From Nostoc sp. (GTDB lineage Bacteria; Cyanobacteriota; Cyanobacteriia; Cyanobacteriales; Nostocaceae), in the NCBI RefSeq assembly GCF_036917375.1, contig NZ_JBALDN010000078.1:36511-68510 (forward strand): a DNA stretch of 32,000 nucleotides, read 5' to 3'. The notes under the pieces were generated by a model. It saw only the letters and a program-made list of their open reading frames with translations. It was not told where the DNA came from and made no database searches. Made by a program: the position numbers and the translations under genes. Of the stretch, positions 20,421 to 24,410 are shown piece by piece; positions within the stretch are counted from its first letter, which is position 1, and each line of letters begins with the position of its first letter.

Positions 20421-21029
20421 TTTTCGGGTTTTGGGGGAAAGGGTTTGAATTTACCTTTCCCCCTTTGCCCTTTAACCTTTTCCCAGACCAAAAGAGAAAT
20501 TGTTAGGCTTATCCGAAAAGTATTGCATTGGGAATTAGGCATTGGGCAAAAGGGGTCTTTTTCCTCAATTTTGAATTTTGATGTAAGGGCGATCGCGGGT
20601 CAAAATGAAATCAATTGCTTTAAGAGAGCGATCGCTTTTCTAATGTGGAGAAGGCAATCGCAGTTTAATCAAAGGAGCGATCGCACACCCTTCCCTTATA
20701 TCTGCGCTGATTTGGCGACTTGCGTCTGGATACAGCAGGCTCAGTTTTTTTATTTTCCCAATTACTGAAAAGTGATTGCCCTATTAGACTTGCCCCTTAC
20801 CCCCATTAATCTATGATGGCGGATTATTTTCGATAAGCTCGCTGCGCGAACCGACGAAATGTAAACCGTTCTAGAGATGTGTTCCACCTTATAGCCCAAT
20901 CGTGTAATGCTGGATGACTCAAAAGGCGTAACAATGAGCTAACTACAAATTTTTACCTTAATTGCGAAATTTAGCCTAGAAACCATGTAGTAATAGGTAA
21001 AATAGGATGCCGCGCTTACGAGGTAGCAC

Positions 21030-21452
21030 ATGGAGCCATTAACAGCTGGTGCGATCGCTTTCACAACTTGGGTAGTGGGTAAAATCATTGACTGGTCAAC
21101 AGACAAAACCTTCGATATAGCTTCAGAAAGGCTGATGCAACTCCTGAAGCAGAAATCGCCAGATACAGCCAAAGCCTTAACGTTAGCTAAGGAAAACGCC
21201 GCCTTACCACTAGGCGAACGAGAAGATATTGGTGAAGCTGTTTTGGTAGAAGAAGTGAAAAAGGCAGCAGCCACAAACCCAGAAATTAAAGCAGCAGTAG
21301 AAGCTTTAGGAAATGATATAAATCTTGCTGTAACTGAGAATCCCGAAGTAGAAAAGCGGTTAACAACTGTGATTGAAAATTGGCAAGGGATAAATATTAA
21401 AGGCGGAAAGCCAACTATCAAGAACAACACCCTTAACTTTGGCAGCAAATGA
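21030..21452 (+). CDS. Small helical protein with a hydrophobic N-terminal helix and a C-terminal N/G/K-rich motif shared with the downstream NLR. It is a candidate Bell/HeLo-like membrane-targeting effector.
   Basis: 140 aa. 'MEPLTAGAIAFTTWVVGKIIDW' is hydrophobic. The middle is charged and helical by composition. The C-terminus 'ENWQGINIKGGKPTIKNNTLNFG' repeats the N-terminus of the next gene. 'gagg' lies 7 nt upstream of the ATG, and the stop overlaps the next start (ATGA). Confidence 0.7.
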   Translation: MEPLTAGAIAFTTWVVGKIIDWSTDKTFDIASERLMQLLKQKSPDTAKALTLAKENAALPLGEREDIGEAVLVEEVKKAAATNPEIKAAVEALGNDINLAVTENPEVEKRLTTVIENWQGINIKGGKPTIKNNTLNFGSK

Positions 21453-21526
21453 CTAGCGAAAATTGGCAAGGGATAAATATTAAAGGCGGAAAGCCAACTA
21501 TCAAGGACAATACCTTCATCTTTGAG
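21375..21526 (+). repeat. Direct repeat with an 83-nt offset that encodes the shared motif
   Basis: 21375-21422 and 21458-21505 are 48/48 identical ('gaaaattggcaagggataaatattaaaggcggaaagccaactatcaag'). The next 19 nt match at 14/19. Beyond that, similarity stops. Confidence 0.95.
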
Positions 21527-23983
21527 TCGCCTAAACAAAATTCCCCAAACAATCTTCTATACTCCGGCTCTGCTAACTTTGTTGGTAGAGAGTATGAACT
21601 CAGCCAAGTGAGTGAAAAATTACAAAAACAAGATTTTGTAGCAATTTCTGCTGTGTCTGGTATGGGTGGAGTTGGCAAAACCGAATTAGCACTCAGATAT
21701 GCACGTCAGCATGAAGCTGATTACCCTGGTGGTATTTGCTGGTTAAATGCGAGAGATTCAAATTTAGCTGCTGAAATTGTGCAGTTTGCCCAAATTTACA
21801 TGAAACTGGAAGTACAGCAGCAGGATTTTCGTGGAAGGGCGCTGAGTCTAACTGAACAGGTAGCTTGGTGTTGGCAGCATTGGCAGCCAGCAGAGGGACG
21901 GGTGCTAATTGTACTAGATGATGTGACATCTTTAGAGGGTTGTCGAGATGTTCTACCAAGGGCTAACCGTTTTCGGGTGTTGATGACAACGCGATCACGG
22001 AATCTAGACTCCAATATTGAGGAAATTTCCTTAGATGTACTCTTACCAAAAGAAGCTTTGGAACTATTGACAGTACTCGTGGGTACTAAACGAGTACAAA
22101 AAGAACTCTCAGTAGCTAAACAATTGTGTGAATGGTTGGGATATCTACCTTTAGGGTTGGAGTTGGTTGGGAGGTATTTGGCGAAAAAACCTCCCAACTG
22201 GTCTTTAGCTCGTATGTTGCAACAACTCAAAGAACAACTGCTGGAAAATGTTGCCCTCAAATTGTCGCAACAGCAAACCCTAAGCACTGCACAGCGAGGT
22301 GTTTTAGTAGCATTTGAATTAAGCTGGCTTGAACTTTCTCATACGACGCAGCGTGTTGCCGCATTATTAAGCTTATTTGCAGCAAATATTTTTGCGATTG
22401 AATGGGTAGAGTCTGCAACTGGATTACTCAATTGGACGAGTGATGATGTTAAGACAGCTAACGACCAACTATATGAACTCCATTTGATTCAATGGGTAGA
22501 AGATACAGAAGGTGAGTCTAAAATTAGAATTCATCCCTTAATTCGGGAGTTTTTGAAAGTTAAACTAGATGCTATTGAACAAGCTTTTCAATTCAAGCAG
22601 GCTTTTGCAGAGACTATTGTTGCGATCGCTCAAGATATTCCCTATTCACCAACTCAGGAGTTGATTAGGCGTGTCAAAGATGCTATCCCACATTTAGCAG
22701 AGGTGGCACAAAATCTGACTGATGCAGTCAGTGATGAAAATTTACTTTCGGTATTTGTTGGATTAGATGGATTTTATTCTGGACAGGGATTATATGCGCT
22801 TGCTCAATCTTGGTGTGAGCAGTGTATATCAGTACTACAATTCCGCTTGGGAGAAGACCATCCCGATGTCGCCGACAGTTACAACAACCTGGCAGCACTC
22901 TACGAATCCCAAGGTCGGTACAGCGAGGCAGAGCCACTGTATGAAAGAGCGTTAGAACTATGGCAACGGATCTTCGGAGAAGAGCATTCCTATGTCGCCA
23001 CCAGTTACAACAACCTGGCTCTACTCTACTATCACCAAGGTCGGTACAGCGAGGCAGAGCCACTGTATAAAAGAGCATTAGAACTATGGCAACGGATCTT
23101 CGGAGAAGAGCATCACTCTGTCGCCACCAGTTACAACAACCTGGCTCTACTCTACTCATCCCAAGGGCGGTACAGCGAAGCAGAGCCACTGTATGAAAAA
23201 GCATTAAAACTCCGGCAACATCTGCTGGGAGAAGAGCATCCCTCTGTCGCCACCAGTTACAACAACCTGGCTCTACTCTACTTCTACCAAGGACGGTACA
23301 GCGAAGCAGAGCCACTGTATAAAAAAGCATTAGAACTCCAGCAACGGCTGCTGGGAGAAAAGCATCCCTCTGTCGCCAACAGTTACAACAACCTTGGAGG
23401 ACTCTACAAGAATCAAGGACGGTACAGCGAAGCGGAACTACTGTATAAAAAAGCATTAGAACTCCAGCAACGGCTGCTGGGAGAAGAGCATCCCTCTGTC
23501 GCCACTAGTTACAACAACCTAGCAGCACTCTACGACTCCCAAGGACGGTACAGCGAAGCGGAACTACTGTATAAAAAAGCACTAGAACTCCAGCAACGGC
23601 TGCTGGGAGAAGAGCATCCCGATGTCGCCAACAGTTACAACAACCTTGGAGGACTTTACAAGAACCAAGGACGGTACAGCGAAGCGGAGCCACTGTATAA
23701 AAAAGCATTAGAACTCCGGCAACATCTGCTGGGAGAAGAGCATCCCTCTGTCGCCACTAGTTACAACAACCTGGCTCTACTATACTCATCCCAAGGACAG
23801 TACAGCGAAGCGGAACTACTGTTCCAAAAAGCTTTGCAACTTTATGAGCAACAGTTAGGTGTAGGTCATTCAGAAACAATAATAGCTAGAAAAAATTACG
23901 CAGAGTTTTTGCGTGATTATGCAAATTTTTTAAGGAGCAAACTAAGTGGCAGTAATATTCCACCTTTGAGCCATTACGTGTAA
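21449..23983 (+). CDS. NLR-like STAND NTPase: N-terminal short motif, NB-ARC domain, then about 9 TPR (TPR_10/12-type) repeats
   Basis: NB-ARC signatures appear in order: Walker A 'SGMGGVGKTELA' (nt 21659-21682), Walker B 'RVLIVLDDV', 'RVLMTTRSRN', the GLPL-like 'LGYLPLGLELVG', and the MHD-like 'IRIHPLIREFL'. These are followed by 42-aa repeats 'VA.SYNNLA.LY..QGRYSEAEPLY.KALEL.Q.LLGEEHP'. Confidence 0.9.
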   Translation: MTSENWQGINIKGGKPTIKDNTFIFESPKQNSPNNLLYSGSANFVGREYELSQVSEKLQKQDFVAISAVSGMGGVGKTELALRYARQHEADYPGGICWLNARDSNLAAEIVQFAQIYMKLEVQQQDFRGRALSLTEQVAWCWQHWQPAEGRVLIVLDDVTSLEGCRDVLPRANRFRVLMTTRSRNLDSNIEEISLDVLLPKEALELLTVLVGTKRVQKELSVAKQLCEWLGYLPLGLELVGRYLAKKPPNWSLARMLQQLKEQLLENVALKLSQQQTLSTAQRGVLVAFELSWLELSHTTQRVAALLSLFAANIFAIEWVESATGLLNWTSDDVKTANDQLYELHLIQWVEDTEGESKIRIHPLIREFLKVKLDAIEQAFQFKQAFAETIVAIAQDIPYSPTQELIRRVKDAIPHLAEVAQNLTDAVSDENLLSVFVGLDGFYSGQGLYALAQSWCEQCISVLQFRLGEDHPDVADSYNNLAALYESQGRYSEAEPLYERALELWQRIFGEEHSYVATSYNNLALLYYHQGRYSEAEPLYKRALELWQRIFGEEHHSVATSYNNLALLYSSQGRYSEAEPLYEKALKLRQHLLGEEHPSVATSYNNLALLYFYQGRYSEAEPLYKKALELQQRLLGEKHPSVANSYNNLGGLYKNQGRYSEAELLYKKALELQQRLLGEEHPSVATSYNNLAALYDSQGRYSEAELLYKKALELQQRLLGEEHPDVANSYNNLGGLYKNQGRYSEAEPLYKKALELRQHLLGEEHPSVATSYNNLALLYSSQGQYSEAELLFQKALQLYEQQLGVGHSETIIARKNYAEFLRDYANFLRSKLSGSNIPPLSHYV
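22868..23875 (+). repeat. Eight tandem 126-bp units (42-aa TPR pairs) with very high nucleotide identity inside the NLR gene
   Basis: The 'gtcgcc' unit starts at 22868, 22994, 23120, 23246, 23372, 23498, 23624 and 23750, an exact 126-nt period. A degenerate unit precedes them at 22742-22867. Confidence 0.95.
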
Positions 23984-24174
23984 TGGGGGGCGAAAAGTAT
24001 TATTTTCTCCTGGTTGTGAGCAGCGTCACTAACCTTGAGTATTTTCCCAACTTAGGATCATAAGTTGGGATTTGAGTTCTGACTGGATTAAATAGTTGAA
24101 TTATATTTATGATACTTTTGAGCGCGATCGCCTTCGCCGTAAATCGGGTTAAGGCAAAAAAACTCATCATCTAA

Positions 24175-24410
24175 TACCTCAAAACGACTTTCAGGTACCT
24201 CAAAACGACTTTGAAGTACCTCAACACGACTTTGAAGTACCTCAAAACGACTTTGGAGTACCTCAACACGACTTTGAAGTACCTCAAAACGACTTTCAGG
24301 TACCTCAAAACGACTTTTAAGTACCTCAAAACGACTTTGAAGTACCTCGAAACGACTTTCAGGTACCTCAAAACGACTTTTAAGTACCTCAAAACGACTT
24401 TCAGGTACCT
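24175..24410. repeat. 21-bp tandem repeat, 11 full copies plus a partial copy (consensus TACCTCAAAACGACTTTSARG)
   Basis: Units start at 24175, 24196, 24217, 24238, 24259, 24280, 24301, 24322, 24343, 24364 and 24385, with the partial copy at 24406-24410. Variation is confined to unit positions 7 and 9 and the last 4 nt (cagg/gaag/ggag/taag). Confidence 0.95.

Follow-up and report, generated by a model that had tools for sequence, protein, structure and literature searches.

Background

Gene pairs in which a small Bell-type effector and an adjacent NOD-like receptor (NLR) share a BASS motif were described by Dyrka et al. (2020), and a 4-bp overlap of the two genes is typical of them. Seven pairs of the motif family bass_07 (BASS7) are listed in Table S2 of that study, one of which, OYE01691.1 (residues 112–137, TTVIENWQGINIKGGKPIIKNNTLNF) with OYE01692.1 (SENWQGINIKGGEPTIKDNT), stems from a Nostoc cyanobiont of Peltigera. 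The study contains no analysis of nucleotide sequences or gene conversion. In fungi, the NLR copy of a shared motif templates the effector copy in HET-S/NWD2 of Podospora anserina, and concerted evolution of the motifs within HRAM pairs was described at the protein level, without a DNA-level conversion analysis (Daskalov et al. 2015; PMC4344463, PMC4518210). The sole bacterial pair with a demonstrated function is Bab/Agp of E. coli ECOR25, an antiphage abortive infection system with a BASS11 motif; this amyloid motif was examined in E. coli (Ibarlosa et al. 2024; bioRxiv 10.1101/2024.11.07.622273). Here, we analysed an effector/NLR gene pair in a stretch of 32,000 nucleotides from Nostoc sp. 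(RefSeq assembly GCF_036917375.1, contig NZ_JBALDN010000078.1, positions 36,511–68,510, forward strand; hereafter the window), in which 48 nucleotides (nt) of motif-coding DNA occur in identical form in both genes. It is quite probable that this repeat reflects a matched pair of BASS7 motifs, kept alike by selection on the peptide and made identical by recent short-tract gene conversion.

Its sequence places the locus among the BASS7 Bell/NB-ARC-TPR amyloid signalling pairs, an already catalogued kind. Like the pairs of Dyrka et al., it has a helical effector of about 140 amino acids (aa) with a nearly identical motif at residues 112–137, an adjacent collinear NB-ARC/TPR gene that overlaps the effector gene and carries the motif at residues 2–25, and a heterocystous cyanobacterial host. 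Unlike in the listed BASS7 pairs, the copies in the window are DNA-identical over 16 codons, and position 12 of the NLR motif is K, not E. The HET-S/NWD2 and HRAM pairs resemble the locus in being adjacent effector/NLR pairs that share a motif of about 21 aa (PMC4344463, PMC4518210). The HET-S/NWD2 genes are, however, eukaryotic and do not overlap, their motif family is unrelated, and the fungal effector has two pseudorepeats. In Bab/Agp, the helical effector is Bell-related, begins with the 'MEPIS'-type N-terminus to which Ibarlosa et al. (2024) drew attention, and ends in an amyloid motif that is matched at the N-terminus of the neighbouring sensor. The Bab/Agp sensor is a TPR-GreA/B-PIN protein rather than an NB-ARC NLR, the effector domain is shorter (about 80 aa) and the motif belongs to another family. 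The role in phage defence was shown for Bab/Agp and not for the cyanobacterial pairs.

The gene pair and its repeated motif

The genes, domains and motifs of the pair were located as follows (positions in the window).

21030–21452, + strand: effector gene, an open reading frame (ORF) of 140 aa with a Bell-type helical domain and a C-terminal BASS7 motif; stop codon TGA
21030–21374, + strand: helical Bell-like domain, residues 1–115, with a hydrophobic N-terminal helix (AlphaFold2 model)
21375–21440, + strand: BASS7 motif copy A, effector codons 116–137, ENWQGINIKGGKPTIKNNTLNF; 48-nt core at 21375–21422; matches the bass_07 rows of Table S2 (Dyrka et al. 2020)
21449–21452, + strand: ATGA overlap of the NLR start codon with the effector stop codon; probable site of translational coupling
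21449–23983, + strand: NLR gene, 844 aa, with an N-terminal BASS7 motif, a linker, an NB-ARC domain and a TPR array
21458–21523, + strand: BASS7 motif copy B, NLR codons 4–25, ENWQGINIKGGKPTIKDNTFIF; 21458–21505 identical to 21375–21422
21590–22276, + strand: NB-ARC domain, residues 48–276 (Pfam, 6.6e-21); P-loop GMGGVGKT at about 21659–21682

Both genes lie on the same strand and overlap by 4 nt. The direct repeat covers 67 nt (21375–21441 versus 21458–21524, 62/67 identical) with a start-to-start offset of 83 nt. Its first 48 nt were identical without exception (48/48), the following 19 nt matched at 14 positions, and the flanks were dissimilar both upstream (ACTGTGATT versus ATGACTAGC) and downstream (GGCAGCAAATGA versus GAGTCGCCTAAA). 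Position 21375 is the first base of effector codon 116 and position 21458 the first base of NLR codon 4, and the encoded peptides of copies A and B were identical at 19 of 22 residues. Removal of one 83-nt unit in silico yielded an ORF of 956 aa with no internal stop. A preliminary description of the DNA had reported this stepped identity, the start of both copies on a first codon position and the in-frame 956-aa deletion product; re-alignment, the ORFs and the in silico deletion, respectively, bore it out. Its view of the pair as a small helical effector and an NB-ARC/TPR NLR with a common motif was likewise upheld by Pfam, AlphaFold and motif comparison.

The motif family was recognised only through the supplementary table of Dyrka et al. 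(2020); no paper turned up when the literature was searched for the motif string. The core ENWQGINIKGG and the length of the motif matched the bass_07 rows, one listed pair was near-identical, and the coordinates of the effector motif coincided with those of OYE01691.1.

The effector itself had no match in Pfam, NCBIfam or PADLOC. Its AlphaFold2 model (predicted local distance difference test score 75.7) consisted of six helices at residues 3–15, 26–42, 44–57, 69–82, 84–103 and 105–117, with the repeat-encoded motif (residues 120–140) disordered; a Foldseek search of the model against the PDB gave nothing significant (best E-value 1.1). The N-terminus reads MEPLTAGAIA (MEPLTAGAIAFTTWVVGKII), and M1, E2 and P3 were invariant or nearly so among 42 homologues. 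A collection of 5.8 billion proteins contained 138 effector homologues, all of them small (at most 177 aa among the 120 matches listed) and all from filamentous, mostly heterocystous cyanobacteria. Features expected of a Bell protein were thus found in the length of 140 aa, the helical domain of about 115 aa, the MEP start, the hydrophobic first helix and the disordered C-terminal motif. Together with the near-identical C-terminus of OYE01691.1, catalogued at the same coordinates, these sequence features argue indirectly for membership of the effector among the Bell proteins. In three homologues (P0008, P0012 and P0028) a helical domain 55–83% identical to that in the window was followed by unrelated C-terminal motifs (e.g. 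NNIEKVVNLAQGIESSINIQNQTVNL; alignment columns 120–178), and C-terminal motifs appear to be exchanged between effectors as modules.

Probable gene conversion between the motif copies

The comparison set comprised 62 related loci, 18 of which carry an ENWQGI-type motif on both genes. The exact layout of the window, with the ATGA overlap and the 83-nt offset, was found in nine of these 18, the window included. The other eight were L002 (Komarekiella), L003 (Aulosira), L004 and L007 (Nostoc), L008 (Mojavia), L047, L054 (Nostoc FACHB-87) and L055 (Calothrix FACHB-156), and Bell identity among the nine ranged from about 96% down to about 50%. Since the offset was kept in nine loci across genera, the arrangement appears to be old and stable. 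A simple tandem duplication of the 83-nt unit that arose recently in this strain is therefore extremely unlikely, even though the repeat is direct and closely spaced: the flanks inside the unit were unrelated, the same offset and ATGA junction recurred in Komarekiella, Aulosira, Mojavia, Calothrix and other Nostoc, and the 3′ part of copy B matched orthologous B copies, not copy A. The preliminary description, which had found the repeat unlike a fresh tandem duplication, was correct on account of the unrelated flanks and the 83-nt layout shared across genera.

The same eight loci speak against its other concern, that the duplication might be an assembly error. Polishing can homogenise short repeats, and a k-mer assembly of a related locus had a suspicious join inside the repeat. 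The 83-nt unit is, however, shorter than a read, other assemblies have the same layout, and the related locus in question, L060 (Logan contig SRR28386252), comes from a different sample and strain. L060 was 95.4% identical to the window over 822 nt, nearly all of them in the NLR gene, and contained the 3′ half of copy A and a copy B the same as that of the window; the identical state is hence not private to this assembly. An assembly or consensus artefact as the source of the identity is hardly conceivable on this evidence. In L060 itself (L060:1–285), unrelated sequence was joined to the middle of copy A at AAAGGCGGAAAGCC. As the 48-nt repeat exceeds the k-mer in length, the join probably arose as an artefact of the de Bruijn graph.

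The length of the identical tract varied widely among the two-motif loci. The longest perfect run between copies was 48 nt in the window, 37 nt in L054, 26 nt in L047 and L015 and 22 nt in L005; it was merely 5–14 nt in L002, L003, L004, L006, L008, L010, L012–L014, L018, L026 and L029. Purifying selection on the peptide in combination with codon bias could in principle account for the repeat without any copying of DNA, given the family-wide conservation of the core ENWQGINIKGG and the biased codon usage of the genome. Under the codon usage of the window, however, the probability that 16 codons for one peptide are all identical was 3.8e-6, so the 48-nt identity exceeds chance. Relatives with the same core peptide moreover shared just 22–29 of the 33 nucleotides in the core, together with about half of the synonymous codons, and synonymous states co-varied between the copies within loci. 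Selection on the peptide as the only cause is thus highly unlikely.

The codons pointed to copying of DNA. Where both copies encode the same amino acid by degenerate codons, these were identical in 17/18 cases in the window, 16/18 in L055, 15/16 in L054 and 13/14 in L005; the background was 7/14 in L002, 7–8/16 in L003, L004 and L008, 5/12 in L012 and L013 and 6/15 in L018. In a permutation in which the NLR copies were shuffled among the 18 loci, copies within a locus shared more synonymous codons than copies of different loci (p = 5e-5 for 22 codons and p = 0.0017 for the 11-codon core), although the compared loci are phylogenetically non-independent and the p-values consequently indicative only. 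The preliminary description had named freely diverged copies in relatives as a refutation of any signal of conversion or selection; codons were shared in the window, L055, L054 and L005 and stood at background in L002, L003, L004, L008, L012 and L013. As for its proposal that gene conversion or selection keeps the cores identical, codon sharing favoured conversion, with selection on the peptide alone insufficient as an explanation.

Distances over the 48-nt core led to the same result. In the window (0 differences), L055 (2), L054 (6), L005 (6) and L015 (7), no sequence was closer to copy B than copy A of its own locus; copy B of L047 had five differences to its own copy A and was thereby tied with the two copies of the window. 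In non-converted loci the copies differed at 9–20 positions, compared with 0 in the window and 2 in L055. The two copies of a locus co-varied in both synonymous and non-synonymous states. For Gly5, A and B both have GGG in the window and L047, GGA in L054 and GGT in L055. Likewise, both copies of L055 read AAG CCT AAG ATC AGC (KPKIS), and both copies of the window AAG CCA ACT ATC AAG (KPTIK). The same-locus nearest neighbours and the co-varying codon states point to episodic short-tract gene conversion between the copies, with L002, L003, L004, L008, L012 and L013 at background.

Copy A of the window was identical to copy A of L047, the closest Bell orthologue, with about 96% identity. The B copies of these loci differed at five sites, four of them synonymous and all within nt 27–42, and at each site copy B of the window had the state of copy A. 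This favours conversion from the effector copy A to the NLR copy B as the most likely direction. From nt 49 onwards, copy B of the window reverted to the NLR-type sequence GAC AAT ACC TTC ATC that is common to L047, L002 and L055. The sequences favour a conversion tract of 16–48 nt, with nt 27–42 as its minimum and 48 nt as its maximum; its 5′ edge would be the end of homology and its 3′ edge the return of copy B to NLR-type sequence. The stepped identity would then arise because the tract ends where the NLR-type sequence resumes.

Besides the non-independence of the loci, several points weigh against the reading of the repeat as a converted BASS7 pair. In part of the data, orthologous copies clustered together (L003, L004 and L008; L012, L013 and L014). 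The direction and timing of conversion are not certain, as copy B of L047 may have drifted or been swapped by recombination; the L047 NLR is truncated at 321 aa and only about 75–80% identical to that of the window, which makes drift or allele replacement in L047 a possible alternative. Pfam offers no Bell model and Foldseek no structural relative in support of the Bell assignment. Finally, the amyloid tests of Dyrka et al. (2020) covered BASS1 and BASS3 only, never BASS7.

If the converted BASS7 pair functions like HET-S/NWD2 and Bab/Agp, the two coding copies of one motif, at the C-terminus of the effector and the N-terminus of the NLR, would be parts of a single signalling route. The membrane-targeting Bell-type effector and the NLR would be co-transcribed and coupled through the ATGA overlap. 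By analogy, ligand-driven oligomerisation of the NLR would gather its N-terminal motifs, which may fold into an amyloid nucleus and template the same motif on the effector; templating would free the hydrophobic N-terminal helix of the effector and lead to membrane damage and, presumably, cell death. The match between the peptides would be upheld by selection, and the perfect 48-nt match of the DNA would be the footprint of a recent conversion. The halves of such a prion-like pair would accordingly be matched by peptide selection plus occasional copying of DNA between them, and motif copying would help to keep each pair private in genomes with many such pairs.

Split and fused forms

The preliminary description had also suggested that the repeat might act as a recombination switch, in which an 83-nt deletion, RecA-mediated or by slippage, toggles between the split pair and a 956-aa all-in-one NLR. 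The deletion product is in frame and free of stops, and perfect repeats of 48 nt separated by 35 nt would plausibly serve as a substrate for deletion. All-in-one Bell-NLR proteins also exist generally (Dyrka et al. 2020). This suggestion was not supported, as no stop-free fused homologue was found in public assemblies and proteins and the 83-nt split layout was conserved. When the first 257 aa of the in silico fusion were compared with 5.8 billion proteins, no protein spanned Bell and NB-ARC, and none covered more than 73% of the query. An exhaustive HMMER search with Bell residues 1–115 gave 31 representatives of 58–168 aa, with a weak match of a 1373-aa protein on an internal stretch as the sole exception. 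Metagenome contigs contained no match to a degenerate pattern of the fused junction DNA, a weak null given that the split-form control found only one locus. In addition, the split layout was retained in all nine loci over the whole range of Bell identity, most relatives lack long perfect repeats (longest runs 5–14 nt), and an irreversible event such as this deletion would amount to a one-way loss rather than a toggle. A functional switch is thus very unlikely; mechanistically, the repeats allow for a deletion, and no evidence of its occurrence or use was found.

Relatives with a single motif copy

A further layout, absent from the window, was found in 27 related loci (L009, L011, L016, L017, L019–L024, L028, L030, L034–L037, L040–L045, L056–L058, L061 and L062; L061 is NZ_CP091916.1 41715–44168, on a plasmid of Nostoc sp. 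UHCC 0870, and L062 is AP018211.1 68791–70581). In these, the motif occurs once, on the effector, and the receptor continues in the same frame and is stop-free for hundreds of codons. The window differs from this layout in its two motif copies and its separate NLR start codon. The receptors were NB-ARC/TPR proteins in 19 of the 27 loci; L062 encodes a CHASE2 sensor and L058 a transmembrane/TPR protein. The effector stop was TGA in 27/27, never TAA or TAG, and the next base was C in 25/27. Two-copy loci with an intergenic spacer had TAA as the effector stop in 13/15 cases (Fisher 3e-10 versus one-copy loci). Reportedly, UGA followed by C is the weakest termination signal in bacteria.

The junction, TGA CTA CAG TCG CCC GAA CGG GAA CGG GTA AAG TTA AAT CCC CCA, was conserved at the nucleotide level; it was GC-rich (CTACAGTCGCCCGAACGGGAACGGGTAAAG; e.g. 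L034:4433–4502) and had no third-position relaxation. RNAalifold predicted a 5-bp hairpin GCCCG/CGGGY from 8 nt past the UGA, with a compensatory C-G to U-A change in five sequences. A structure 8 nt downstream of a stop is in the classic position of a recoding stimulator. A regular expression for the hairpin matched 22 of 27 one-copy loci and none of 17 two-copy loci. The covariance model R1, built from 19 training junctions, had 24 matches in 433 kb, all of them at effector stop codons; five lay in non-training loci and none in the window or in any two-copy locus. A stem sequestering the UGA (UUGACU/AGUYAA), seen in single-sequence folds, was dropped, since it is broken in L030, L037 and L041 and absent from the RNAalifold structure. 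Thirteen of the 19 NB-ARC loci lacked any in-frame start codon (ATG, GTG or TTG) from the UGA up to the conserved FVGR motif at the N-terminus of NB-ARC, and the RefSeq start of one such receptor lies 114 nt past the stop, just before the P-loop.

The simplest reading of the one-copy layout is programmed UGA readthrough, a candidate mechanism that would give much free Bell-BASS protein and little Bell-BASS-receptor fusion. Selenocysteine at the UGA is a rival reading. The Rfam gathering search found nothing at the junction and the E-value search only a chance match to a lncRNA (E = 1.9), which means no known selenocysteine insertion sequence or other recoding element there. Non-canonical reinitiation and a recombination junction for the shuffling of modules are further rivals. 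The one-copy layout was also considered as a product of the 83-nt deletion and rejected, since the deletion reads F-E-S-P without a stop and the layout F-UGA-CUA-CAG-UCG.

Programmed UGA readthrough is known from the coat/A1 genes of phage Q-beta. Like Q-beta, the 27 one-copy relatives would form a short abundant and a rare extended product through a leaky UGA-C, with a hairpin 8 nt on; unlike Q-beta, the candidate readthrough would take place in cellular or plasmid genes and is known here from sequence only. No relevant literature on readthrough in Bell/NLR systems was found, and the layout is mentioned neither by Dyrka et al. (2020) nor by Ibarlosa et al. (2024) nor in the searchable literature. 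If readthrough is real, it would add cellular or plasmid genes of bacteria to the few known examples of the programmed kind, would account for signalling by receptors that have neither their own motif nor their own start codon, and would provide a built-in ratio of sensor to effector. Many cyanobacterial NLRs, such as WP_237997356.1, would then be annotated with truncated N-termini. We give this comparative result, which concerns relatives outside the window, more weight than the result for the window itself.

In a neighbour-joining tree of Bell domains, one-copy and two-copy layouts were interleaved. Within the clade of the window, L002 (two-copy) was sister to L056 (one-copy), and L057 (one-copy) adjoined the group of the window, L047 and L054. 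This interleaving suggests that lineages have changed their layout repeatedly. Both layouts have TGACTA behind the effector and AGTCGCC ahead of the linker, as would fit the gain or loss, by insertion or deletion, of a motif copy downstream of the stop. We tentatively propose, as a possibility that does not quite reach even odds, that there are two interchangeable layouts, a two-copy form kept matched by copying and a one-copy form with UGA readthrough, and that the 48-nt identity in the window is a recent mark of the copying by which they are linked. The intuition of split versus fused forms would then be right in evolutionary terms, but the fused state would be recoded and not the product of a deletion.

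Other features of the NLR gene and the flanks

Two further features lie in or behind the NLR gene.

22848–23822, + strand: TPR tandem array with a 126-nt period, 7.7 copies and 87% matches
24045–24070, + strand: terminator-like hairpin of 10 pairs with a T-rich tail, 62 nt past the NLR stop (consensus scan only)

The TPR region of the NLR contained eight TPR_12/TPR_10 units (Pfam TPR_12, 2.3e-152). Strong conservation of internal repeats, as in this array, has been reported for fungal and bacterial NLRs, and the array at 22848–23822 is itself a likely substrate for reshuffling of repeats. Four close NB-ARC relatives (P0163, P0166, P0167 and P0198) had an N-terminal EAD10 domain (Pfam PF19954, effector-associated domain 10) in place of the BASS motif; by sequence, the same NLR chassis is combined there with another pairing module. 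The hairpin at 24045–24070 probably marks the end of the operon. Just downstream of it, a 21-nt tandem unit (TACCTCAAAACGACTTTGAAG) was repeated 11.2 times with 90% identity (24175–24410), open on both strands and encoding heptad-like peptides (RYLKVVL...).

In several relatives the NLR was missing, reduced or divergent. The closest Bell orthologue in the genome collection (96%), L001 of Nostoc sp. NMS7, shares only 20882–21440 with the window; its homology stops precisely where motif A ends and is followed by an insert of about 200 nt (L001:4411–4620) bounded by inverted repeats (TGTACAGTGAC/GTCACTGTACA), which resembles a miniature inverted-repeat transposable element and has no NLR behind it. 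Between 20877–22177 of the window and L047:3848–5148, the effector was about 96% identical and the NLR fell to about 60–80% directly after motif B; the L047 NLR is truncated at 321 aa. From this pattern, the effector seems to stay conserved while the NLR modules behind it are swapped or degenerate, and the breakpoint would lie in the motif region. In L050 (1065–1150) and L051–L053, the effector was intact (91% identical), the NLR was reduced to a stub and the motif copy was decaying (EEWKGINIKGGKPIVRDNTFIF), so that the effector appears to be orphaned.

The genes around the pair in the window are ordinary chromosomal ones (ThiD2/TMP-TENI thiamine biosynthesis, penicillin-binding transpeptidase, glycosyltransferase, Dus and fatty-acid desaturase), and homology to relatives begins about 150 nt upstream of the effector. 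From their flanking genes (relaxase, Mob_Pre, TraG/TrwB, ParA and DUF3854), many related pairs (L054, L055, L056, L058, L061 and L062) are located on plasmids or plasmid-like contigs. Judged by these flanks, the effector/NLR pair behaves as a mobile cassette.

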